DNA of 47,798 nt from Caldimonas sp. (GCA_035493195.1 DATJIM010000293.1:1-47798); one strand, 5' to 3'; shown: positions 15,135 to 40,209, counted from the stretch's first letter. The notes: a model not told the origin generated them from the sequence alone. Numbers and translations are program-made.

Positions 15135-15581
15135 CTAGGCAGCGGCGATCTCGACGTCGTCGAAGGCGAGCTCGATCGTTTCCATCAAGACCGAGCCGTC
15201 GAGGGCATCGAGCGGCGAGTACGCGAGGCTCACGGGCCGGGCATTGCGAAGCCGCCAGGTCATCCGCACCGTCGCGTGGTCGTCGGCGAGAAGCTTGACG
15301 GTCACCGTTCGCCGCGGCGGTGCGCGACCGTCGCGCGCCTGCCGCCACCAGGCGTAGAGGTCGAGCGCACCGGTGGCGCCGCGGCGCAGCAGGACGCGAT
15401 CGGCGAGGGGCGCTGTTGGCGTCGCGCCGACCGACGGCAGCGCAGCACCCGGCTTCGCGGTGAAGGCACCGAAGACCACCGCGGCGAAGCCGCCCGCCTT
15501 GCCGGCGCCGATCTCGACGACGAAGTTCGCGTTCAGCAGCGGGCGCTCGCGCGCTGCCGCCGCCTTCTTCGCCGCGGCCAT
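15135..15581 (-). CDS. Divergent phage-tail tube-like protein (T4 gp19/Afp1-Afp5 family)
   Basis: Colinear with neighbour: NFVVEI, GF..V, LRRG..G..DLYAW, RTVTV.L...D, TW.L..A.P, E.IELAFD. Confidence 0.72.
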   Translation of the reverse strand: MAAAKKAAAARERPLLNANFVVEIGAGKAGGFAAVVFGAFTAKPGAALPSVGATPTAPLADRVLLRRGATGALDLYAWWRQARDGRAPPRRTVTVKLLADDHATVRMTWRLRNARPVSLAYSPLDALDGSVLMETIELAFDDVEIAAA

Positions 15582-16034
15582 CTATTCGAGCTCGAGCCGC
15601 TCGTAGGCGAGCACGATCTCCTCCATCGCGACGTCGTTGCCGCGGCCGTTGAGCGGGCCGCTCGAATACTTGACGATGCGCGCGCGCAGCAGCTTCCACG
15701 TCTGCACGACCTGGCTGTGGTCCTCGCTCTGCAGCTGGATCGTCACGGTGCGCAGCGCGTTCTGGTTGCCGTTGCGAATGTCGTTCAGCCAGCTGTAGAG
15801 GTCGAGCGCGCCGATCACCCCGCGCTTCATCGTGACGTCGGTCGCCTTGTTGAGCCCGGTGATCTTGATCGGGCTGTTCTCCTTGGAGTTGCCGTTGCGG
15901 TACTCGACGACCGCGACCTCGGTCGAGATCGCGCTCACGTCCTGAAATCCCGCTTGCGGGCCCTCCGTCGTTCCGCTCCCGAGGTCGACGAGGAAGTTGA
16001 ACTGCGTGTACGGGCGTTCGCGCGCGACGGCCAT
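15582..16034 (-). CDS. Phage-tail tube protein (T4 gp19-like, contractile injection system Afp1/Afp5 type)
   Basis: PY.QFNFLV, GFQ.VS, VEYRNGN, KITGL....DVT.KRG, W.L..A...K.S.G.LN..GNDVA.EE..L.YE; GAAGGGAG RBS. Confidence 0.9.
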   Translation of the reverse strand: MAVARERPYTQFNFLVDLGSGTTEGPQAGFQDVSAISTEVAVVEYRNGNSKENSPIKITGLNKATDVTMKRGVIGALDLYSWLNDIRNGNQNALRTVTIQLQSEDHSQVVQTWKLLRARIVKYSSGPLNGRGNDVAMEEIVLAYERLELE

Positions 16035-24824: not shown

Positions 24825-26075
24825 ATGCAGCATCTCGCCTCGTCGCCCCTGGCGCGTCTCTCGCTTCTCGTCGTCCTCGTCGCCGGCTGCGCGACACCGC
24901 CTCCCGAGCAGCCGCGTTCGGCCGAGCAGCCGCAGGCCCCCGCGCCGGCGCCCGTCGCCAGGCCGGCGCCGCCGCCGCTCGTCGCTGCGCCGTTCACCGA
25001 CGCCGTCGCGCGCGCCGGCGATCGGCTGCTGCAGGACGCGGCGGCGGCGCTCGGCAGCGGTGCGCGCGAGCTCGTCGTCGATCCATTCGTCGACGCCAAC
25101 ACCGGTCAGCAGACCAACGCCACCGTCCAGATGGGCGCCCAGCTCGCCGGACTCATCACCCGCCGCGTGCCGACCTGGAACGTGCAGGCGCTGACGCGCG
25201 CCGCGCTGGCGGCCAAGCCGCTGCTCCTGATCGGCACGCTGACGCCGATCAACAGCAAGGCGGCGAGAGACGAGAACGCCGACGCGTTTCGGGTCTGCCT
25301 CGCCCTCATCGATGTGCGCACCAGCAAGATCGTCGCCAGGCGCGTCGACCGCGCGACGCTCGCGAGCGTCGACGCCGAGCCGATCGCGCTCTTTCGCGAG
25401 GCGCCGACGTGGGCGCTCGACGCCACCGCCGAGGCCTACATCAAGAGCTGCGACGGCAGCAATCCGGGCGATCCGGTGGCGCCGCTCTACCTGAAGCGGC
25501 TGCCGGCGGCGGCGCTCGTCAACGAAGCGACGCTCGCGTTCACCGACAACAAGATGGCCGACGCGTATCGGCTCTATCGCGAGGCTCGCTCGCTCGCCGC
25601 GCCCGACGATCTTCGCGTCCTGAACGGGATCTACACGACGAGCTGGAAGAGCGGCCGCAGGAAGGAAGCCGGCGAAACGTTCGGCAAGATCATTGACATC
25701 GGCCTCGCCAACCGACGGCTGCCGATCAAGCTCTTCTTCAACCCGGGGACGACGACGCTCATGCAGTCGGCCGACCTGCAAGCGCAGTACACCCTCTGGC
25801 TGCAGGAGGTCGCGAGCCACGTCGCGGCGAGCGACGCGTGCGTGAAGGTCATCGGCCACACCAGCCGCACCGGCGATCCGCAGGCCAACGAAGTGCTTTC
25901 GCAGAAGCGCGCGTCGGTGATCAAGCAGAGCCTCGAGCGGCAGAACCGCAAGCTCGCGACGCGCGTCAGCGCCGAAGGCGTCGGCGCCCGCGAGATCATC
26001 GTCGGGCTCGGCACCGACGACGCCCGCGACGCGCTCGACCGTCGCGTCGAGTTCCGCAGGGTCGACTGCCGCTGA
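24825..26075 (+). CDS. Lipoprotein with C-terminal OmpA-like peptidoglycan-binding domain
   Basis: Lipobox LVAG-C, Pro-rich linker; GHTS..G....N..LS.KRA..I...L...GVG......RRVEF. Confidence 0.85.
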   Translation: MQHLASSPLARLSLLVVLVAGCATPPPEQPRSAEQPQAPAPAPVARPAPPPLVAAPFTDAVARAGDRLLQDAAAALGSGARELVVDPFVDANTGQQTNATVQMGAQLAGLITRRVPTWNVQALTRAALAAKPLLLIGTLTPINSKAARDENADAFRVCLALIDVRTSKIVARRVDRATLASVDAEPIALFREAPTWALDATAEAYIKSCDGSNPGDPVAPLYLKRLPAAALVNEATLAFTDNKMADAYRLYREARSLAAPDDLRVLNGIYTTSWKSGRRKEAGETFGKIIDIGLANRRLPIKLFFNPGTTTLMQSADLQAQYTLWLQEVASHVAASDACVKVIGHTSRTGDPQANEVLSQKRASVIKQSLERQNRKLATRVSAEGVGAREIIVGLGTDDARDALDRRVEFRRVDCR

Positions 26076-28451: not shown

Positions 28452-29492
28452 ATGCGCTTTTCGCTCGTCGCGACGCTGCCGCGACCGCTGCGTCCCGTGC
28501 TCGCGGCGACCCTCGTCGCCATCCTCTGCGGCTGTGCATCGGGGCCGCGGGCGCCGCAGCGCGCGCCGGTCGACGGTGGCGGCGACCGCGACGGCCCGGG
28601 CGCCAATCCGCCGACCGACCTCGCGGGCCGTGCCGACGCCGAGCCGCGCGTCGAAGCCGTTCGCGTGGGCGGCGCCAACAAGCCGTACCAGGTGCAAGGC
28701 AAGACCTACGTTCCCGAAACCCGCGACGTGCCGTTTCGCGAGCGCGGCCTGGCGTCGTGGTACGGCCGCAAGTTCCACGGCAAGATGACATCGAGCGGCG
28801 AGCCGTACGATATGTACGCGATGACGGCTGCGCACCCGACGCTGCCGATCCCGAGCTACGCGCGCATCCGCAACCCGGCGAACGGCCGCGAGGTGATCGT
28901 TCGCATCAACGACCGCGGTCCGTTCGTTTCCGGCCGCATCGTCGACCTCAGCTACACCGCGGCACTCAAGCTCGACCTCCTGCGCGGAGTCGGGCCAGTC
29001 GAGCTCGAGCGGATCACCTTCGACGACATCCGCACCGGCGCGTGGCGCGGCAACCGGGCCCCGCGCAGCGACGTCGATCCGTCGGTGCAGCTCGCCGCGG
29101 CGCCGTCGACTGCCGCGACGCCGGCAGCGCCGGCGCCGGTCGTCGCCGCAGCGGCGACTGTCGTTCTGCAGCCGACATCGCCAGCGACGGCCGCAACGGT
29201 GCCGACGCAGGATGTCGCGCTCGTCGCTGCGAGCCCTGCGGCCGTCGACGCCGGGCGCTTCTGGGTCCAGCTCGGCGCGTTTCGCGCGCGCGACGGCGCG
29301 GAGACGTTTCGCAGCCAGCTCGGCAGCGACGCAGTCGCACGCTGGCTCGAGCCGCTGCTCGTGATCGTCGGCGAGAGCGCGCCGTACCGCGTCCAGGCGG
29401 GCCCGTACCGCAGCCGCGACGAGGCCGACGAAGCGGCGCAGCGTGCGCGCTCGGCGCTCGCGATCGTTCCGGTCGTCGTCGAGCGGCGATGA
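28452..29492 (+). CDS. rlpA: Septal ring lytic transglycosylase RlpA with SPOR domain
   Basis: Lipobox LCG-C; GLASWYG.KFHG..TSSGE.YDM..MTAAH.TLP, RINDRGPF...RI.DLS; SPOR VQLGAF...YRVQAGP. Confidence 0.93.
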   Translation: MRFSLVATLPRPLRPVLAATLVAILCGCASGPRAPQRAPVDGGGDRDGPGANPPTDLAGRADAEPRVEAVRVGGANKPYQVQGKTYVPETRDVPFRERGLASWYGRKFHGKMTSSGEPYDMYAMTAAHPTLPIPSYARIRNPANGREVIVRINDRGPFVSGRIVDLSYTAALKLDLLRGVGPVELERITFDDIRTGAWRGNRAPRSDVDPSVQLAAAPSTAATPAAPAPVVAAAATVVLQPTSPATAATVPTQDVALVAASPAAVDAGRFWVQLGAFRARDGAETFRSQLGSDAVARWLEPLLVIVGESAPYRVQAGPYRSRDEADEAAQRARSALAIVPVVVERR

Positions 29493-30085
29493 CGGCGGCA
29501 ACGCGCGATGCCGCGGCAGGGCCGCGCCAGGCGATCGTCTTCACCGGCCACATGGTCGACGCTCCCGATCGACCGGTGCCGCGCTTCCCGTCCCGCCTCG
29601 TCGCTGCCGCGGCGCGCGCGATCGACGGCGCGCTCGCGTCGATCGACGCCGGCGCCAACGACGTCGCCTTCACCGAGGGAGCGGCGGGCGGGGACCTCCT
29701 CTTCGCCGAGGCGTGTCTCGCCCGCGGCGTGCCGCTCACGCTCCTGTTGCCGCTCGCCGAGGACGAGTTCGTCGACCGCTCTCTCCTGGCCGTCAGCGAC
29801 GGCGCAGCCTGGCTCGCGCGTTATCGCGCCGTCGTCGCGCGCCTCGCCGTCGCGCCCAGCGAAGCGCCGCGCGAGCTCGGCGCGCTCGCTGCCGGCGACG
29901 ACCCGTTCGTTCGCGGCAACCTGTGGCTGCTCGCGCGAGCGCTCGCCGCGAACGCCGAGCGGCTGTGCTGCATCTGCTTATGGGACGGCGGCGGCGGCGA
30001 CGGCCCGGGCGGCACGCGCCATCTCGTCGAGGCGGTGCGCGCCGCCGGCGGCGACGTGATCCGCATCGATACCCACGCGCTCTGA
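29489..30085 (+). CDS. Stand-alone SLOG-superfamily (YpsA-like) protein
   Basis: ATGA overlap with rlpA; FTGHMVD...RFP, GAAGGDLLFAE, LLLP, R.N.W.L, LWDG..GDGPGGT...V match the YpsA/SLOG motif order. Confidence 0.65.
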   Translation: MTAATRDAAAGPRQAIVFTGHMVDAPDRPVPRFPSRLVAAAARAIDGALASIDAGANDVAFTEGAAGGDLLFAEACLARGVPLTLLLPLAEDEFVDRSLLAVSDGAAWLARYRAVVARLAVAPSEAPRELGALAAGDDPFVRGNLWLLARALAANAERLCCICLWDGGGGDGPGGTRHLVEAVRAAGGDVIRIDTHAL

Positions 30086-30228
30086 CGCTTTCACCATTCG
30101 AAGGGATGTCGCGCGGTGGGTGCGGATGCTGCAATCGCCGGCCGGCGCGCGCTTGCCTCGGCCGCCCGCGCCAACGATGATCGGCCCCGTCGCACGCAGA
30201 CGACGAACCAACTTCACGGAGAGAGAGC

Positions 30229-31182
<954 letters not shown>

Positions 31183-31245
31183 GCGAGCGCGCGATCGGGC
31201 GTGCCGGCCGGCTCGTCGGCGCGCGATCGCGGCCCGGGAGCGTCC

Positions 31246-34200
31246 ATGGCGAGCGGCAGCAGCACGAACGACATCACCTTCATCGTTCCCGGGCAGGCGC
31301 AGGACGCCGCGCCTCCGAGCACGCGCGGCGCCCTCAAAGCGGCGGTGCGGGTCGGCACCGAACGCGGCGGCGGCGAGCCGGTGCGCGTCAGCGCGCGGCC
31401 CGGCCGCGACGTCGTCGTCCTCGAGATCGCCAATGGGCCGACGCTCGTCCTGCACCCCGCCGCGGCGCGCGACCTGATGCTTGCGCAGAGCGCGTCGGTG
31501 ACGCGCGATGCGCTCGCCGGCACGCGCGGCAAGCCGAGCGAGATCCTCGTTCCCGCGCAGCTCGGCTGGCCCGGGCTCGAAGCGGAGGCGACGCGCGGGA
31601 CGACGCGCGGTTGGCTCGGCCAGGCGCTGCTCACGGGCTTTCAGGTGCTGACCGGCGACGCGCTCGACCCGGCTGCCAAGCTCGCCGCCGCGGCGGTCAC
31701 GAAGAAGGTCGACGCCCAGGTCGATGTCGGCGTCTACCGACTCGACGCCAATTCGCTCGCGTCGCTGAAGGGCAGCGGCGCGAAGCTCGACATCGTGCCC
31801 GCCGCCGCCGACGGCGGTCCCCTTCTCGTCTTCGTGCACGGCACGTTCTCGGACACCGTCGGCACGTTCGGCAAGCTCTGGACGTTGCACAGCGCGACGG
31901 TTCGCCAGCTGTTCTCGAGCTACGACGACCGCGTCTACGCGCTCGACCACCCGACGCTCGGCACGAGCCCGATCGGCAACGCGCTCACGCTGGTGCGCGC
32001 ATTGCCCGTGGGCGCACGCATCCATCTGGTGACGCACTCACGTGGCGGCCTCGTCGCCGAGGCCGTCTCGCGCGCCTGCGCCGGCGGCGACTCGATCGGC
32101 GAGGACGTGCTCGCGCTCTTCGCCGGCGACGGCTTCCAGCAGCACCGCAGCGACCTGCGCGCGCTCGCCAAGGAAGCGAAGGCCAAGGGCATCCGGTGCG
32201 AGCGCCTCGTCCGCGTCGGCTGCCCGGCGCGCGGCACGCTGCTCGCATCGAAGCGGCTCGACGCGTATCTCTCGATCCTCACGTGGTGCCTCGGCCTGGC
32301 GAGCATTCCGGTCGCCGCCGAGGTGGTCGACTTTCTGCACGAGGTCGCGCGCCGCCGCTCCGAGCCTGCCGAGCTGCCCGGGCTCGAAGCGATGACTCCC
32401 CAGAGCCCGGTCATCGCGTGGCTGAACAACGCCGCCGACACGATCCCCGGCGAGCTGCGCGTCATCGCCGGCGACATGGAAGGCGACTCGATCGGCTCGT
32501 GGGTCAAGACGCTTCTCTCCGACGCGTTCTACTGGACCGACAACGATCTGGTCGTGCAGACGCGCTCGATGTACGGCGGCGCGCCGCGCGCCAAGACCGC
32601 GAGCGGCAGCGGCGCCCGCTTCCTGCTCGACAAGGGCGGCAAGGTCTCGCACTTCAACTACTTCAGCAACGAGCGCACCGTGCAGGCGATCGCGAGCGCG
32701 CTGCTCGACGACCAGCCTGCGGGCTTCGCGGCGATCGGGCCGCTGTCGTGGGCCGGCGAGGACGCGAGCGGAACGCGCGCCGCCGTCGCGGTCGCGCGCT
32801 CGCGCGGCGCCGCTGGCGCGGGCGCGGGGGAGCGGCCGGCGGTGTTCGTGATCCCCGGGATCGTCGGCTCGAACCTGAAGAAGGACGGCAAGCGGATCTG
32901 GCTCGGCTTTCGCATCGTCAACAACCTCAAGGCGCTCGCGTGGGATCCGTCGACCGCGTCGAGCGTCGAGCCCGACGGCCCGATCGGCAATCTCTACGGC
33001 GACTTGATCGAGCGGCTGGCCGACAGCCACGAGGTGATTCCGTTCGGGTACGACTGGCGGCGGCCGATCGAGGACGAAGCGCGCCGGCTCGCCTCCGAAG
33101 TCGACATCGCCCTCACCGCGCGCGCGAGCAGCCAACAGCCGGTGCGCATCGTCGCCCACTCGATGGGCGGCCTCGTCGCGCGCACGATGGCGCTCGAGAA
33201 GCCCGAAACGTGGACGCGCATGATGGCGCGCGACGGCGCGCGCTTTCTCATGCTCGGCACGCCGAACGGCGGCTCGTGGTCGCCGATGCAGACGCTGTCC
33301 GGCGACGACACCTTCGGCAACGCACTCGCCGCGTTCGGATCGCTGTTCGACAATATCGGCGCGCGCGAGGTCATGGCGGGGATGCCGGGCTTCCTGCAAC
33401 TGCAGGCGGCGTTGCTCGACAAGACGTTCGGGCTCGATCGCAGCGAGACGTGGCAACGGCTCGCTGCGGAAGACCTGCAGCGGCTGCTCGACCGCAGCCT
33501 CTGGCACCTCGAAGGCGTGCAGAAGACGATCTACGGCTGGAGCGCGCCGCCGCAACCGACTCTCGACCTCGCGGTCGCGCTGCGCCGCCGCCTCGACGCG
33601 CAGGCCGGCGCCTTCGCCGGCGACGGCAAGACGCTGCTCGTCGTCGGCCGCGCGCCGTTCACGCCGGGCGGCATCGTGATGGCCGAGAGCGGCCTCGAAT
33701 ACACCGAGGCGGTCGGCGGCGGCGACGGTCGCGTGCCGCTCACGAGCGCCGTCCTGCCCGGCGTGCGGACGTGGAAGTTCGACGCCGCGCACGGCGACCT
33801 GCCGTCGGTCGCGCAAGCGTTCCCCGCCTACCTCGAGCTGCTCGAGAGTGGCGAGACGGCGCTGCTCGAGGCGCTCGATCCGACGAGCGTGACGGCGCTG
33901 CGCTCGGCGCCCGCAGCGGCGACGGCGGGCGCGCGCAGCCGGCCTTCGCGCGGCGTCCAGCCGTCGACGCCGCCGTCGACGCCGGCCGACGTTCTCGGCG
34001 CCGGCATGCGCGCTCCGAGCGAGCCGGCGCGCAGCGCGAGCGCGGGCCGCGCGTTGCACGTCTCGGTGCTCAACGCAGACTTGAAGTTCGTCCACCAGCC
34101 CCTCGTCGTCGGCCACTACCGCTCGCTCGCGCTCACCGGCACCGAGGCGGTCGTCGACCGTCTGGTCAGCCGTGCGATGAGCCGCTCTCTCGCCGCGGGC

Positions 34201-36816
34201 CTCTATCCCGAGGCGATCGGCACGCACCAGATCTTCGGCAACGTCCGCAAGGACCCGAACAACGTGCTCGCGATGGCACGTCCACTCGCGGTCATCGTCG
34301 CCGGGCTCGGCGAAGAAGGAAAGCTGCGCGCGGTCGACCTCGTCTACACCGTGCGTCAGGCGGTGATCGCGTACGCGCAGCGGCTCGCCGAGAAGGAGAG
34401 CGGCGTGCCGGCCGAGTTCGAGGTCGCGGCGACGCTGATCGGCAGCGGCGGCACGGGCATCAGCGCCGGCAGCGCGGCGCGTCTCGTCGCGCAGGGGACG
34501 TGGGAGGCCAACCAGAAGCTGCACGACAGCGGCTGGCCGCAGGTCGGGCGGCTGATCCTCGTCGAGTTCTATCTCGATCGCGCGAGCGAGGCGTGGCGCT
34601 CGCTCCAGGTGCAGGCGACGGCGGCGCCGAGCCAGCTCAAGGTCGTCGGCTTCGTGCAGTCGGGCGCCGGTGCCCTGCGCCGATCGCTCGACTCGAGCTA
34701 CCGCGGCGCGTCGTACGACTTCATCAGTGCGACGCTCGGCAAGCCCGACGACGGCGGTGCGCCGACGATCACCTACACGCTCGACACCAAGCGCGCGCGC
34801 ACCGAGGTGCGTGCACAGCAGACGCAGACGACGCTCGTCAAGGAGCTCGTCGCCAAGGCGTCGAACAGCGCCAACCGCGATGGCCAGATCGGCAGCACGC
34901 TGTTCGACCTGCTCGTGCCGGTCGAGATGGAGCCTTTCCTCGGCGGCACGAGCGAGATGGTGATCGAGCTCGAGCGCGCGACCGCGGCGCTGCCGTGGGA
35001 GGTGCTCGACACGTCGTCGGCCGAGCTCTCGGGAAGCGACCCGCGGCCGTGGGCGATCCGCAGCAAGCTGCTGCGCAAGCTGCGCACGAAGGAGTTCCGC
35101 TCGCAGGTCTCGGACGCGAGCGCCGACGGCAGCATCCTCGTCATCGGTGAGCCGATGGTCGACGAGTCGATGTATCCGCCGCTGCCCGGAGCGCGCGCGG
35201 AAGCGATCGCGGTCGCGACCCGGCTGACGTCGGGTCCTGCCGGCGTCGACGCGGCGCGAGTGCGCGCGCTGACCAGCGGCAACGACGACGCGCGCAACAT
35301 CATCAACGCGCTCTTCGAGCGGCCGTACCGCATCGTCCACGTCGCCGGGCACGGCGCGCCTGGCGCCGACGGCGGCGTCGTCCTGTCCGGCGGCACCTAT
35401 CTCGGCGCCGCGGAAGTGAAGGCGATGCGCGTCGTCCCCGAGCTCGTCTTCCTCAACTGCTGCCATCTCGGCGCGCTCGACGCCAAGACGGTGCTCGCGC
35501 CGTACGACCGCGCCGAGTTCGCGGCCACGATCGCCGAGGCGCTGATCGAGGTCGGCGTGCGCTGCGTCATCGCCGCGGGCTGGGCGGTCGAGGACAAGCC
35601 GGCCGAGCTGTTCGCGACGACGTTCTACGACGCGCTCCTCTCGGGCAGCCGCTTCATCGACGCCGTTGCGGCGGCGCGCACTGCGGCATGGCGTGGCGGC
35701 GACGGCGGCAACACGTGGTCGGCGTACCAGTGCTACGGCGATCCGGGCTGGACGTGGCAACGCGACGTCGGCGATGCACAGCGGCAGAGCGCATCGCCGA
35801 GCGACGAGTTCGCCGGCGTCTCGTCGCCACCGGCGCTGACGCTCGCGCTCGAGACGATCTCGATCACGCTGCGTTTCGGCGGCGACATCGATCCGGCCAG
35901 GCAGAAGATCCTCGCCCAGGCGCAGCGCGACAAGATCCGCTTCCTCGAGGAGAAGTTCGCCGCGCTCTGGGGCAGGATGGGCGCGGTCGCCGAGGCGTTC
36001 GGGCTCGCCTATGCAGACGCGCGCGACGTCGACAAGGCGATCGACTGGTACCGCACCGCGGTCCACGCGGACGATGGCAGCGCGTCGTTCAAGGCCGCCG
36101 AGGAGCTCGGCAACCAGCTCGCGCGCCGCGGCGAGTCGAATCCGGACCCGACCGCAGGGCGCCGCGACGTCGAGGAGGCGATCGCGCGGCTCGGCAAGCT
36201 GGTCGTGATCCAGCCGACGGTCGAGCGCGAGGCGCTGCTCGGCTCGGCGTACAAGCGACTCGTGATGATCGAGAGCCGTGCCGACGCTGCCGCTGCGGGC
36301 GCGCGCGGCGGGCGCCGCGCGAAGTCGCAAGCGGTCGCGGGCGATCGCCTCGTGGCGTTGCGCGCGATGGTGCTGCACTACGGCAACGCCGAGCGCCTGG
36401 CGCGCGAGGCCAACGCCGACAATCTCTACTACCCCGCGAAGAACGGCATCAGCGCCGAGATCAGGCTCGCCTTCCTCGAGCGGCGACCGGCCGAGCTCGC
36501 GGTCGATCGAATGCGAGCGGTGCAGGAGTCGCTCGCGCGCGCCGCCAGCCAGAGCCCGGACTTCTGGTCGGTCGTCGGCCTGATCGAGCTGCGTGTCCTC
36601 GAAGCTGTCGCTGCGCAGCGACTCGCCGACACGTCGGGCGCGCTGATCGCCGAGTTCAGCGATCTGAAGGCGCGCGTGCCGGCGCGCGGCATGTGGGACT
36701 CGGTGCACTCCGAAGCGCGCTTCACGCTCGAACCGTATCTCGGGATCGCGAGCGCTGCGGAGAAGCGCGCCGCGACCGCGCTGCTCAATGCGCTTGCCGA
36801 GATGGCGCGCACGTGA
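31246..36816 (+). CDS. Large multidomain protein: two alpha/beta-hydrolase (lipase-like) domains, CHAT caspase-like protease, C-terminal TPR-like region
   Basis: FVHGTFS...THSRGG; IPGIVGS...YDWR...AHSMGG...LGTPNGGS...GDGRVP...HGDL; LPWE...HVAGHG...FLNCCH...AGWAV.D...YQCYGDP; LGSAYKRL helical repeats. Confidence 0.88.
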   Translation: MASGSSTNDITFIVPGQAQDAAPPSTRGALKAAVRVGTERGGGEPVRVSARPGRDVVVLEIANGPTLVLHPAAARDLMLAQSASVTRDALAGTRGKPSEILVPAQLGWPGLEAEATRGTTRGWLGQALLTGFQVLTGDALDPAAKLAAAAVTKKVDAQVDVGVYRLDANSLASLKGSGAKLDIVPAAADGGPLLVFVHGTFSDTVGTFGKLWTLHSATVRQLFSSYDDRVYALDHPTLGTSPIGNALTLVRALPVGARIHLVTHSRGGLVAEAVSRACAGGDSIGEDVLALFAGDGFQQHRSDLRALAKEAKAKGIRCERLVRVGCPARGTLLASKRLDAYLSILTWCLGLASIPVAAEVVDFLHEVARRRSEPAELPGLEAMTPQSPVIAWLNNAADTIPGELRVIAGDMEGDSIGSWVKTLLSDAFYWTDNDLVVQTRSMYGGAPRAKTASGSGARFLLDKGGKVSHFNYFSNERTVQAIASALLDDQPAGFAAIGPLSWAGEDASGTRAAVAVARSRGAAGAGAGERPAVFVIPGIVGSNLKKDGKRIWLGFRIVNNLKALAWDPSTASSVEPDGPIGNLYGDLIERLADSHEVIPFGYDWRRPIEDEARRLASEVDIALTARASSQQPVRIVAHSMGGLVARTMALEKPETWTRMMARDGARFLMLGTPNGGSWSPMQTLSGDDTFGNALAAFGSLFDNIGAREVMAGMPGFLQLQAALLDKTFGLDRSETWQRLAAEDLQRLLDRSLWHLEGVQKTIYGWSAPPQPTLDLAVALRRRLDAQAGAFAGDGKTLLVVGRAPFTPGGIVMAESGLEYTEAVGGGDGRVPLTSAVLPGVRTWKFDAAHGDLPSVAQAFPAYLELLESGETALLEALDPTSVTALRSAPAAATAGARSRPSRGVQPSTPPSTPADVLGAGMRAPSEPARSASAGRALHVSVLNADLKFVHQPLVVGHYRSLALTGTEAVVDRLVSRAMSRSLAAGLYPEAIGTHQIFGNVRKDPNNVLAMARPLAVIVAGLGEEGKLRAVDLVYTVRQAVIAYAQRLAEKESGVPAEFEVAATLIGSGGTGISAGSAARLVAQGTWEANQKLHDSGWPQVGRLILVEFYLDRASEAWRSLQVQATAAPSQLKVVGFVQSGAGALRRSLDSSYRGASYDFISATLGKPDDGGAPTITYTLDTKRARTEVRAQQTQTTLVKELVAKASNSANRDGQIGSTLFDLLVPVEMEPFLGGTSEMVIELERATAALPWEVLDTSSAELSGSDPRPWAIRSKLLRKLRTKEFRSQVSDASADGSILVIGEPMVDESMYPPLPGARAEAIAVATRLTSGPAGVDAARVRALTSGNDDARNIINALFERPYRIVHVAGHGAPGADGGVVLSGGTYLGAAEVKAMRVVPELVFLNCCHLGALDAKTVLAPYDRAEFAATIAEALIEVGVRCVIAAGWAVEDKPAELFATTFYDALLSGSRFIDAVAAARTAAWRGGDGGNTWSAYQCYGDPGWTWQRDVGDAQRQSASPSDEFAGVSSPPALTLALETISITLRFGGDIDPARQKILAQAQRDKIRFLEEKFAALWGRMGAVAEAFGLAYADARDVDKAIDWYRTAVHADDGSASFKAAEELGNQLARRGESNPDPTAGRRDVEEAIARLGKLVVIQPTVEREALLGSAYKRLVMIESRADAAAAGARGGRRAKSQAVAGDRLVALRAMVLHYGNAERLAREANADNLYYPAKNGISAEIRLAFLERRPAELAVDRMRAVQESLARAASQSPDFWSVVGLIELRVLEAVAAQRLADTSGALIAEFSDLKARVPARGMWDSVHSEARFTLEPYLGIASAAEKRAATALLNALAEMART

Positions 36817-36918: not shown

Positions 36919-37704
36919 CTAGCGGCCGCCGGTGATTTCCAGGACCGAGCCCGTCGTGTAGCTGGAGCGATCGGAGAGCAGCCAGACGATGGCTTCGCCG
37001 ACTTCCTCAGCCGTGCCGGCGCGGCGCATCGGTAGCTGCGGCGCCATCTGCTCCGCGCGGCCGGGAGCGCCCCCCGAGGCATGGATCTCGGTCGCGATGA
37101 TTCCCGGGCGCACCGCGTTGACGCGGATGCCTTCGCCCGCGACCTCCTTGGCGAGGCCGATCGTGAACGTCTCGATCGCGCCCTTGGCGGCGGCGTAGTC
37201 GACGTACTGCGCCGGGCCGCCGAGCTTGGCGGCGGCCGACGACACGTTGACGATCGCGCCGCCGGCGTGCGCCCCCGGCGCAGCCGCCACTGGCCGCGTC
37301 GTCATCCGCAGCACCGCCTCGCGCGCGCAGTAGAAGCTGCCGAAGACGTTGATCGCGAACATGCGCTGCAGCCGCTCGACCCCGATCGCGTCGACGCGCG
37401 CGGCGAGGTCGACGACGCCGGCGTTGTTGACGAGCCCGGCGAGCGGCGGCAGCGAAGCGTCGATCGCCGCGAACATCGCGCGCACCTCGTTGTCGTTCGC
37501 GACATCGGCTTGAACCGCGAGCGCGCGGCCACCGGCGCCGACGATCGCGGCGACGACAGCGTCCGCCGCGGCGCGGTCGCGCGCGTAGTTGACCGCGACC
37601 GCCCAACCGGCGGCGGCTGCGATGCGGCACGTCGCCGCGCCGATGCCGCGGCTGCCGCCGGTGACGAGCACGGTGCGCATCGCTGCGCCCGGCTCATTCG
37701 TCAT
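36919..37704 (-). CDS. SDR family oxidoreductase
   Basis: TGGSRGIG, NNAG, NVSS, YAAAK, RVNAVRPG; start 37704 or 37680. Confidence 0.93.
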   Translation of the reverse strand: MTNEPGAAMRTVLVTGGSRGIGAATCRIAAAAGWAVAVNYARDRAAADAVVAAIVGAGGRALAVQADVANDNEVRAMFAAIDASLPPLAGLVNNAGVVDLAARVDAIGVERLQRMFAINVFGSFYCAREAVLRMTTRPVAAAPGAHAGGAIVNVSSAAAKLGGPAQYVDYAAAKGAIETFTIGLAKEVAGEGIRVNAVRPGIIATEIHASGGAPGRAEQMAPQLPMRRAGTAEEVGEAIVWLLSDRSSYTTGSVLEITGGR

Positions 37705-38767
37705 CGTCGCCCCGCGCGTCGTCGCCTTCGCCGTTGCCGTGCTCCTTCGCCTGCTTGTCGAGGATCGCCTGCATCGGCGCGAGCCCATCGATGAAACGGT
37801 CGACCGACTTCGGCTTGGCGAGGCGCAGCTGCGGCGGGAAGAGGTGGTTCATGTAGAGCTCCTCGCCGAGGCGCCCGGTGCGCTGGACGTTGAACCAGAG
37901 CGAGAGCGCGACGCCGACGACGAAGCCGGTCGCGGCGACGCCGCGCATGAGCCTGCGCCGCGACGGCTCGACCGCGAGCAGGTGGAAGTAGATCGCCGCC
38001 GCCGCGGTCGCGTAGACGGCGACGAAGCTGAAGTCGGTCAGCCACGGCCACGAGAACGCGAACGCGAAGAGCGGCGGGACGACCGAGAGCGCGAGCAGCA
38101 CCAGGCTGGCGACGACGAAGACGCGGACGTGCCAGCCGAAGTGGCTCTGTCGCGTGAACGTCTTCGAGAGCAGCGCCCAGAGGCCGCACCAGATCGCGCC
38201 GCCGGCGATCGTCGACAGAACAACGGTGCCGGCGCTGCGCACGAGGGCCTCGGGGTCGGTGTCGATCCACACCGACGCGAGGACGAACAGAAGGACCGCG
38301 ACAGCGAAGCCGAGCGTCGGCGGCCAGCGGTGGTCGGTGTCGGCGACGGCGCTCATCGGCTGCTCGGCGGCGAGCGCGTCGCTCGGCAGGCGCAGGCGCA
38401 GCTGAGCACGGCCGATCTGCAACTCGACGCCGCGGCCGTCGTCGACGATCTCGCGCGCCGCGCCGCCGGCGACGCGATCGCGGCGGCCGACGACGACGCC
38501 GTTCCTCGTTTCGCCCGCGGCGACGACGACCCTCGCCGGCGCCGCGTCGCCGGCTGCGACGAGGTCGATCGTCGCGTGGTGGGCGGCGACGTGCGGGTCG
38601 CTGAGGACAATCGTGTTGTCGAGCGCGCGGCCGATCGTGACCGGCCAGCGGTCGATCCGCCACGACTGCCGAACCAGGCCGTCGCGGTCGACGATCTCGA
38701 GCAGAGCGGGCGCCGGCGGCGCCGCCAGCGCGCTCGGCTCGATCTGCGCTAGTGCGGCGCTACCCAT
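37694..38767 (-). CDS. FHA-domain membrane protein
   Basis: IGRALDNTIVLSDPHVAAHHA...RNG FHA pattern followed by about 5 TM segments. Confidence 0.85.
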   Translation of the reverse strand: MGSAALAQIEPSALAAPPAPALLEIVDRDGLVRQSWRIDRWPVTIGRALDNTIVLSDPHVAAHHATIDLVAAGDAAPARVVVAAGETRNGVVVGRRDRVAGGAAREIVDDGRGVELQIGRAQLRLRLPSDALAAEQPMSAVADTDHRWPPTLGFAVAVLLFVLASVWIDTDPEALVRSAGTVVLSTIAGGAIWCGLWALLSKTFTRQSHFGWHVRVFVVASLVLLALSVVPPLFAFAFSWPWLTDFSFVAVYATAAAAIYFHLLAVEPSRRRLMRGVAATGFVVGVALSLWFNVQRTGRLGEELYMNHLFPPQLRLAKPKSVDRFIDGLAPMQAILDKQAKEHGNGEGDDARGDDDE

Positions 38768-40209
38768 CGGTATGCGTCGAGATAGTGCCGGGCGAGGCGC
38801 TGCGCGTTGGCGAAGCTCACGCCCTGCGCGTCGAAGCGGCCCTGCACGCCGGTCTGGCTCTGGTCGAGCGTCGCGACGAGGACGGCGACGTCGTACAGCT
38901 GCGGCAGCTTCTTGTACGCGCGCATGCAGACGACGGCGCGCAGCGGCAGGCCGTCGCGGTCGATGTAGTCCTCCTCGCAGCGCGGCTTGGTCTGGTGCTG
39001 CGACGACAGCCGCACGAACGACTCGTTGCGAAAGCTCGCCGCGTAGCGCGACGCGAAGCGCAAGGCCCCGAGCTTGGTGCCGTCGTAGCTCTCGTGGCGC
39101 AGGCTGATCGTTCCGGTCGTGAAGTCGCCGACGAAGATGCGCGTGTCCATCACGCAGTCGGAGCGCTCGAAGTCGAGGCCGCCGGTCTGCGACACGGTGC
39201 TCGTCCCCCAGCAGCGCATGAAGACGTCGGGCGGCACCGGGACGCGGTAGCGCGGGTGCGTCGCCTCCTTCCAGCCCTGCGCGATGAAGCGGTCGGTGAG
39301 CGTCGCCTGGTGCTTGAGCAGCTGCTCGTCGACGATCGGGTACGCCGAGCCGACGAGCGGGGCGGCGTCCTTGCCGCGCGCGAGCAGCGCGCTCGCGAAC
39401 TCGCCGGGAACGAGAAAGCTGACCTGCTCGCCGTCGATGCGGCGCGCGACGTTGACGCCGACGACGTGGCCTTCCTCGTCGAGCGCGGGGCCGCCGCTCA
39501 TCCCCGCCGAAAGCGCGCCGCCGAAGAAGATCTGCGGATAGAAGCTTCGCTTGACGAGGCCGTTGTACGTGCCCTGCGTCACCGCGAAGCCGACGTCGAG
39601 CGGGTTGCCGAGCGAGTAGATGCGCTCGCCTTGCGCGAGCGGCTCGTTCGCCGGTCGGAACGCGAGCGCGTCGAAGCGCTTGCCAGCGCCGCTTGCTGCG
39701 CTCGGCGCGGCGTCGCCGGCGCGCAGCAGCGCGAGGTCGTGGAGGACGTCGAGCTGCAGGATCGTGAGCGGCGCCTCGCGGCCGTCGGCGGTGACGTAGA
39801 CGAGGTCGTGCTGCTCGGGCTTGAGCGCCGCCTCGCTGACGACGTGGAAGTTGGTGAGGATGTGGCCCTGCGGGGTGACGAAGAAGCCCGAACCGACCGA
39901 CGTCTGGCTGGCGCGCCCCTTCAGCACCGTGCGGATCTGAACCAGCTGCGAGCGCGCCTGCTCGTAGATCTTGCGCGCCGAGAGCGACACCGGCGCGGTC
40001 GGCACCGCCACTGCCGAGGCAGGCGATGCGGGCCCTTGCGCTTCGCTCGGCGCCGGGGGCGGCGCGGGCTCGGGACGGGGCGCGGCGGCCGCGGGAACGA
40101 CGATGCAGACGATGGCGGAGGCGATCAGCGCACCTGCCAGCCGGGCCGCGAGCGTCGGCGCGATGCCGACGAAGGCCGCGCCGAGAGAGGACGGCCCGAT
40201 CGCTTTCAC
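38749..40209 (-). CDS. Trypsin-like serine protease (S1) with Cys-containing C-terminal domain, no PDZ
   Basis: GSGFF, TNFHVV (His), DLALL (Asp), GMSGGP (Ser); N-terminal signal/TM. Confidence 0.88.
   Translation of the reverse strand: MKAIGPSSLGAAFVGIAPTLAARLAGALIASAIVCIVVPAAAAPRPEPAPPPAPSEAQGPASPASAVAVPTAPVSLSARKIYEQARSQLVQIRTVLKGRASQTSVGSGFFVTPQGHILTNFHVVSEAALKPEQHDLVYVTADGREAPLTILQLDVLHDLALLRAGDAAPSAASGAGKRFDALAFRPANEPLAQGERIYSLGNPLDVGFAVTQGTYNGLVKRSFYPQIFFGGALSAGMSGGPALDEEGHVVGVNVARRIDGEQVSFLVPGEFASALLARGKDAAPLVGSAYPIVDEQLLKHQATLTDRFIAQGWKEATHPRYRVPVPPDVFMRCWGTSTVSQTGGLDFERSDCVMDTRIFVGDFTTGTISLRHESYDGTKLGALRFASRYAASFRNESFVRLSSQHQTKPRCEEDYIDRDGLPLRAVVCMRAYKKLPQLYDVAVLVATLDQSQTGVQGRFDAQGVSFANAQRLARHYLDAYRWVAPH

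Follow-up and report, generated by a model that had tools for sequence, protein, structure and literature searches.

In the type III-B CRISPR system of Haliangium, SAVED-CHAT activates the protease PCaspase (10.1101/2023.06.23.546230), and SLOG, macro, caspase, and TPR domains act as sensors or effectors of Thoeris types I, II, IV, and VIII (10.64898/2025.12.03.692087; 10.1101/2024.10.24.620036). A further class, of TPR-S systems whose partners are YpsA, TIR, patatin, and caspase, was predicted by Burroughs and Aravind in 2020 (via 10.1101/2023.05.26.542521). Here we describe a locus of Caldimonas sp., a bacterium of soil type (GCA_035493195.1, DATJIM010000293.1:1-47798; the whole stretch of 47,798 nucleotides is termed the window), in which three co-oriented genes downstream of rlpA encode a YpsA-like SLOG protein, a metacaspase, and a very large multidomain protein, hereinafter the giant. 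The three genes (the module) retain intact catalytic residues in recognizable domains, co-occur in relatives, and have been lost jointly, and their sequences suggest that the set is likely a signal-triggered self-destruct or defense switch. The module comprises the following features.

29489..30085, + strand: standalone YpsA-like SLOG protein, 198 aa (AlphaFold2 [AF2] fold match; invariant G67-x-D69)
30229..31182, + strand: metacaspase (peptidase C14), 317 aa (PF00656, E 5.5e-24; His in YSGHGG, Cys in DSCHSG)
31246..36816, + strand: giant, 1,856 aa (N-domain, hydrolase 1, hydrolase 2, macro fold, pseudo-protease, CHAT, TPR-S)
31246..31812, + strand: N-domain of the giant, fold not assigned, rich in [STA]R[GS] (candidate Arg cut sites)
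31813..32730, + strand: alpha/beta hydrolase 1 (DUF7379), triad S280-D449-H484
32833..33855, + strand: alpha/beta hydrolase 2, LCAT/group XV phospholipase A2-like, triad S654-D842-H864
34045..34629, + strand: domain predicted to adopt a macro fold (residues 949-1143; GHY, G-x-E, and GSGG loops retained); the most conserved domain
34708..35775, + strand: separase-type pseudo-protease followed by the CHAT protease (PF12770, E 1.3e-28), dyad H1384-C1421
35818..36813, + strand: TPR-S repeat domain (PF20308, 29.5 bits against a cut-off of 27.6)

Comparison with described systems

Like the SAVED-CHAT/PCaspase pair, the module places a ligand-type domain N-terminal to CHAT and pairs it with a second caspase-like protease. 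Unlike that pair, it has a macro fold rather than SAVED, adds hydrolases, a pseudo-protease, and TPR-S, and its cleavage is only predicted. No SAVED domain was found in the three module proteins and no Cas10 or Cas7-11 among the flanking genes (Csm1 and Cas7-11 were not searched for genome-wide), and the genome, of which the window is one complete contig and which is 81% complete, has no Cmr2 match. When compared with VIA, the unit of pseudo-protease and CHAT matches separase (Z 21.3), the Craspase component Csx29 (19.4), SAVED-CHAT (18.9, at 24% identity), and DdvA (18.7). The giant thus shares the combination of pseudo-protease and CHAT fold with Csx29 and separase, but its TPRs are C-terminal and ASK1-like rather than N-terminal, and the window holds no Cas7-11 partner.

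The likeness to Thoeris extends to ThsB-like TIRs that flank some relatives of the module, one such TIR type scoring as PADLOC Thoeris ThsB1 (E 2.5e-45). The module itself differs in having no TIR on its contig and in presenting a multienzyme effector rather than a two-gene operon. PADLOC, from which the sequence-only reading of the window (an earlier interpretation made by a model from the DNA alone) had expected no named hit, indeed returned no named system and no Thoeris match for the three proteins. The flanking genes (rlpA, SDR, FHA, and trypsin) include no CD-NTase of the type seen in CBASS, and no SMODS match was found in the 81%-complete genome. None of these identities is that of a gasdermin substrate, no gasdermin profile having been run.

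The predicted TPR-S conflict systems are like the module in linking TPR-S with YpsA-type SLOG, TIR, patatin, and caspase partners; the linked signal generator expected of this class, a TIR or a DRHyd-like glycosidase, is absent from the window locus and present at some related loci, and the genome has seven TIR genes elsewhere. Their core, in the text available, is a glycosidase-TPR protein, in contrast to the giant with its hydrolase-hydrolase-macro-CHAT-TPR-S architecture and accompanying metacaspase. In agreement with the sequence-only reading, which knew of no characterized system of this kind, a literature search found no description of the module architecture; an earlier computational listing is possible (Burroughs and Aravind 2020; Burroughs et al. 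2015; supplements), and the available parts of PMC8195603, PMC9503650, and 10.64898/2026.10.19.760177 do not describe the giant. The module is a variant of the predicted TPR-S/TIR class.

Domain organization and conservation of the three proteins

The sequence-only reading had placed three co-oriented genes after rlpA, and three + strand open reading frames (ORFs) of 198, 317, and 1,856 aa do lie there. Its four motif positions in the giant were exact (THSRGG 32032, AHSMGG 33154, HVAGHG 35338, and LNCC 35452); the two caspase motifs start at 30547 (YSGHGG) and 30703 (DSCHSG). Signal peptides had also been said to be missing, and a hydropathy scan (not a formal predictor) found no above-threshold segment in SLOG, caspase, or giant. 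The G+C content of the module resembles that of the remainder of the window. No sigma-70 promoter match was found for the module; short contigs from soil and rhizosphere RNA libraries cover all three genes with shares of 0.07-0.11 but may derive from DNA and are not evidence of expression.

The SLOG protein has no match in Pfam, NCBIfam, or PADLOC, and a profile search against PDB sequences gave nothing useful. The proposed YpsA-like identity is borne out by its AF2 model (pLDDT 89.8), whose best match is Bacillus subtilis YpsA, 2nx2 (Foldseek E 2.3e-5; VIA Z 16.0, rmsd 3.0, 158 aligned residues), followed by DprA, ShosA, and LOG; this match places it in the SLOG superfamily. G67 and D69 are invariant in 30/30 aligned homologs and, as judged by eye, match the GxD/E motif of YpsA (described in PMC6459960). 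Among the best 120 longer homologs listed, 117 have TPR-S, and the others are a patatin fusion, an RlpA fusion, and a Pfam-less protein. By this homology the gene encodes, as a separate protein, a domain that is more often attached C-terminally to TPR-S, and it belongs to the family of the C-terminal domain in DUF4071-type TPR-S-SLOG proteins. The record of an rlpA-SLOG fusion (P0394) stands alone, is probably a frameshift, and was set aside. Fusions that use the same SLOG family include a patatin-SLOG protein (P0492) and a ParA-type-DUF4071-type-TPR-S-SLOG protein (P0489); among the proteins examined, SLOG was never fused to a giant.

The metacaspase has the caspase fold and His-Cys dyad of a peptidase C14, as had been read from the sequence, and its YSGHGG and DSCHSG motifs are present in all homologs listed. 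Its closest solved relative is Geobacter sulfurreducens GSU0716 (3bij; E 1.8e-85), deposited as uncharacterized, after which yeast Mca1 (E 1.8e-17) and plant and trypanosome metacaspases are matched. It further displays an acidic DEDDKKDE loop and a Lys-rich N-terminal tail. Arg/Lys specificity and calcium activation are traits of the metacaspase family, and by analogy the enzyme is probably specific for Arg/Lys.

Pfam recognizes DUF7379, LCAT, PGAP1, CHAT, and TPR-S in the giant, whose residues are numbered here from GTG 31201 (1,871 aa; the ATG at 31246 gives 1,856 aa). The N-domain has no informative match in Pfam, PDB, or Atlas. Hydrolase 2 matches PF02450 at E 7.1e-9 and human LCAT at E 7e-5, and with its Ser-Asp-His triad and profile match it is of the LCAT/group XV phospholipase A2 type. 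The C-terminal half was modeled over residues 945-1871 (pLDDT 89.1, pTM 0.84) and compared in three parts with VIA. The sequence-only reading had recognized two serine hydrolases, CHAT, and a TPR-like tail; these stand, the tail now being specified as TPR-S, but a macro-fold domain between hydrolase 2 and CHAT had been missed. This domain matches an aminopeptidase N-domain (7y1s, Z 17.2) and the macro domains of PARP9 (15.1) and PARP14 (15.0) over 164-174 residues, values that place it in the macro alpha/beta fold. Leads in Pfam and Atlas are to Peptidase_M17_N, and a profile search against PDB sequences gave nothing useful. The GH, G-x-E, GLG, and SGG columns are kept in 129 macro-domain homologs. 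Next to it, the CHAT part has the clan CD fold with an intact His-Cys dyad, as had been claimed; the catalytic residue is most likely C1421, the second C of LNCC, because it is kept in 48/49 diverse proteins against 45/49 for C1420. The TPR-S tail resembles the central regulatory region of ASK1 (5ulm; VIA Z 19.8, rmsd 3.7, 266 aligned).

Conservation of these elements is extensive. In 43/43 full-length close homologs of the giant, neither the two Ser-Asp-His triads nor the CHAT residues vary, and in a diverse set of 49 long proteins, each representing a cluster at 50% identity, the catalytic residues are kept in 48 or 49 proteins, except S654 (40/49) and C1420. The ratio of nonsynonymous to synonymous substitution (dN/dS), from six pairwise comparisons, is below 1 for all three genes (SLOG 0.27-0.55, caspase 0.26-0.38, giant 0.25-0.33) and falls to 0.14-0.25 in the macro domain. 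Since the residues are invariant and dN/dS is below 1, the motifs are not chance occurrences. A macro profile search matched 1,511 cluster representatives; among the best 150 of these, macro-CHAT-TPR-S is the constant unit, while the N-terminal modules vary between hydrolases, STAND, and ParA-TIR, and 47/49 long proteins have the window's architecture. The core is also found fused to nSTAND1 and ParA-TIR-nSTAND1, and one close relative bears a C-terminal EAD1-trypsin-AAA extension. Shorter macro-CHAT-TPR-S proteins, some perhaps fragments at contig ends, have one hydrolase or none, and an annotated 936-aa Rhizobium gene with the macro-CHAT core has no hydrolase. Phage records gave no match to the core.

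The motif [STA]R[GS] occurs 86 times in the N-domains of 45 representatives against 28.9 expected, and 33 times against 11.2 in those of 16 distant-clade proteins, in both cases above all 200 shuffles; in seven neighboring protein families the ratio of observed to expected is 0.2-1.4. The linker between hydrolase 2 and the macro fold has 42 against 19.3 expected among the 45 representatives; in the distant clade it has 7 against 3.5, which is inside the shuffle range. These counts hint at Arg-directed cutting, the hint being a faint one because the motif was picked post hoc from the sequences and the homologs are related.

Co-occurrence, insertion site, and neighborhoods

The module was followed across relatives in a survey of 106 loci (after 11 duplicates were dropped), with genes called by our own script, and in an evenly drawn family sample of 200 genomes, in which a genome was scored as giant-positive if the macro domain was matched. 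In the survey the caspase lies immediately upstream of the giant in 60/94 loci having an upstream gene, SLOG lies within four genes in 26/84, and a TIR gene lies within two genes in 13/66, on at least six tree branches. Taken alone, the 33 family-sample loci give lower figures (caspase adjacent in 11, SLOG in 3, TIR within two genes in 3). Of the 200 family genomes, 34 are giant-positive, and these contrast with the 166 others in caspase (25/34 against 1/166), SLOG (12/34 against 3/166), and TIR genes (25/34 against 43/166, or 3.35 against 0.44 per genome), although kinship and genome size inflate all of these contrasts. The phylum sample gave matches in 3/400 genomes, of which two belong to the same family. 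Co-conservation of the three genes, which the sequence-only reading had named as a check, holds for the caspase and the giant; SLOG is a recurrent accessory rather than an obligatory partner. Among cultured organisms, Piscinibacter koreensis, Azotobacter chroococcum HR1, and Rhizobium leguminosarum 31B carry the module.

The closest named relatives of the window genome are labeled Caldimonas and Rhizobacter, and within the genus the module occupies a defined site between two genes.

28452..29492, + strand: rlpA, left flank of the insertion site, outside the module; beside the SDR gene in three module-free genomes
36919..37704, - strand: short-chain dehydrogenase (SDR), right flank of the insertion site, outside the module; FHA and trypsin genes come next

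In the three module-free relatives rlpA adjoins the SDR gene and all three module genes are absent together. Another unmatched genome retains a 150-aa end of the giant. In the genus 23/30 genomes match, a tally that includes the unpublished G625, and the site was inspected in five of the seven unmatched genomes. One apparent loss (L125) was not counted because its contig ends inside the giant gene. At the same site two genus genomes have a giant only 32-33% identical, which the tree puts in a distant clade, with a caspase 76-77% and SLOG 52-53% identical. Other relatives have DUF4071-type TPR-S-SLOG, ThsB1-type TIR-receiver, TIR-TPR (with a likely membrane anchor), multitransmembrane, STAND, or cyclase genes there; the full DUF4071-TPR-S-SLOG gene, of ~665 aa, takes the SLOG position in L047, L053, and L054. 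Within the genus the module thus has a fixed chromosomal site and is mostly inherited vertically, unlike a typical defense island.

Plasmid records yielded 13 matches, nine of them over 80% of the query, and five were opened. The Azotobacter copy adjoins a type I restriction-modification (R-M) system and insertion sequence elements, the Burkholderia copy is surrounded by transposases, and the Rhizobium copy has three TIR genes around it, two of them TIR-nSTAND1-WD40, together with a standalone SLOG of the same family (E 3.8e-56). Relatives thus show an immune-type context, with TIR, STAND, type I R-M, and plasmids.

Some neighborhoods deserve record in their own right. In L083:186-12841, co-oriented genes encode SLOG, TIR, an AAA ATPase, a 1248-aa membrane protein, and the giant, with the caspase ~1 kb further upstream, an arrangement reminiscent of MoxR-type ternary systems. 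A SIR2-CHAT fusion gene lies immediately downstream of a distant-clade giant (L100:4340-6628, - strand). An unannotated multitransmembrane protein of ~520 aa (c17; L022:7323-8906) is near the giant in 11 loci and has a homolog elsewhere in the window genome (G000 contig C336, 27704-29317); its C-terminal cytoplasmic domain aligns, below significance, to glycosidase/TIR (nucleoside deoxyribosyltransferase-like) profiles with the Glu in register. The window genome has seven TIR genes, all on other contigs, one of which, predicted to have a transmembrane segment, lies beside a 642-aa caspase-domain ORF; the two, at G000 contig C291, 5559-8445 (- strand), are a second TIR-caspase pair in that genome. 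Around the site itself, the FHA-domain and trypsin-like (S1C) genes at 37694-40011 (- strand) form a conserved flanking pair, the trypsin gene being present in 29/30 genus genomes, and an OmpA-domain lipoprotein-like gene (24825-26075, + strand) lies upstream of rlpA in many relatives too. At 15135-16034 (- strand) are two neighboring paralogous genes of ~150 aa, one of which, by its motif, reads like a phage-tail-tube (gp19-like) protein; no other phage genes were seen nearby.

A proposed mechanism and its alternatives

The reading that we favor, to which we give about an even chance, is that the module is a latent CHAT/metacaspase/lipase effector of death or dormancy, switched on by an NAD-derived signal from unlinked TIR enzymes. 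An ADP-ribose-type messenger would be made by TIR or related enzymes encoded elsewhere and bound by the macro fold, aided by SLOG and TPR-S, which would then activate the adjoining CHAT, in the way that SAVED acts on its CHAT protease; Thoeris types II and IV are further precedents. A two-step cascade would follow, formed in either order by CHAT and the metacaspase, the latter probably cutting after Arg/Lys. Cuts at the Arg motifs in the N-domain and in the linker behind hydrolase 2 would unlock both hydrolases. These would then act on the lipids of the membrane, and the caspase would break down other proteins. It is the TIR genes, the type I restriction island, and the plasmid copies that point to immunity. 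The sequence-only reading had cast SLOG or the TPRs as sensor; in the structure model the macro fold is the best in-cis candidate for that role. It had also made the release of lipase domains the output, which may be one output but cannot be the only one because the hydrolases are dispensable in some relatives.

Several observations weigh against this proposal, beyond the limits already placed on the Arg motif and on the family contrasts. The fold closest to the macro domain is that of an aminopeptidase N-domain and not of a ligand-bound macro domain. With respect to the canonical motifs (GDI, NAAN, and two Gly loops, taken in part from L112-L116), NxDL and the Gly loops are present, GHY stands in the place of NAAN, and no significant similarity emerged when its profile was compared with those of four ordinary macro proteins; ligand binding by the domain is thus putative. 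The metacaspase has no large additional regulatory domain and its acidic loop is like that of calcium-activated metacaspases, and therefore it may not need CHAT. The window locus has no TIR, cyclase, or STAND gene, TIR is absent within two genes in 53/66 loci, many neighbors of the giant in the family sample are housekeeping genes, and two Paracoccus plasmid loci have metabolic neighbors and no defense context. Finally, the giant is near-core in the genus (23/30 genomes), and the dS of the module falls in the range of the flanking genes, a housekeeping-like divergence that gives no indication of an arms race.

The same immune or death output could be reached with no messenger at all, if TPR-S or a STAND partner were to sense an invader protein directly and activate CHAT, the macro fold being structural as in leucine aminopeptidase. 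The aminopeptidase match and the Peptidase_M17_N leads agree with this, as do the direct fusion of STAND to the core in some relatives and the reported switching of Csx29 by a partner complex. We nevertheless consider it unlikely, given that the macro fold is the most conserved part of the giant, with Gly-rich loops invariant in 129 homologs, that TPR-S is not fast-evolving, as a sensor of phage proteins might be, and that TIR and SLOG partners recur.

A nonimmune role in stress or envelope remodeling, in which regulated proteolysis and lipid acyl transfer would serve membrane repair, division, or development in the manner of HetF, a CHAT protease and reported divisome component (PMC8406250), is likewise improbable to our minds. 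The fixed site after rlpA, the near-core status and housekeeping-like divergence in the genus, the likeness of hydrolase 2 to LCAT, an acyltransferase, and the cell-wall enzymes that are occasional neighbors of the giant would all suit such a function. They are to be set against the presence of the module in only 34/200 family and 3/400 phylum genomes, its clean loss from three genus members and exchange for distant-clade versions in two, and its links to TIR, STAND, EAD1, and R-M.

That the caspase and giant form the functional pair and SLOG is a bystander, the remnant of a DUF4071-TPR-S-SLOG gene that has become coupled to rlpA, has a slim chance at best: the SLOG start overlaps the rlpA stop (ATGA) and a 143-base gap precedes the caspase, the full-length gene holds the same position in three loci, and SLOG is missing from most loci and has the weakest constraint of the three genes, but it is lost with the other two while rlpA stays, adjoins the giant in differently arranged loci and in other clades (L083, L091, L105, L126, L127, and the Rhizobium plasmid), and is accompanied by the giant in 12/15 SLOG-positive family genomes.

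Implications

For the majority of bacterial proteins in the caspase family neither trigger nor substrate is known, according to 10.1101/2024.10.24.620036, and with the module the metacaspase clade of GSU0716 acquires a consistent partner and a candidate activation route. A bolder version of the messenger-gated reading, of which we are doubtful, would make the module a vertically kept central executioner, a macro-gated CHAT-metacaspase with phospholipases on an ASK1-like scaffold, integrating many unlinked TIR receptors across the genome instead of serving a single operon; if so, these bacteria would possess a network of innate immunity built on an initiator protease and an executioner protease, whose sensors and effectors could be exchanged at a fixed site. 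More generally, if the messenger-gated reading is true, a macro-gated CHAT would be added to the known signal-gated proteases, one locus would unite sensor domains used separately by the Thoeris types, and the numerous orphan TIR genes in these genomes would be supplied with an effector.

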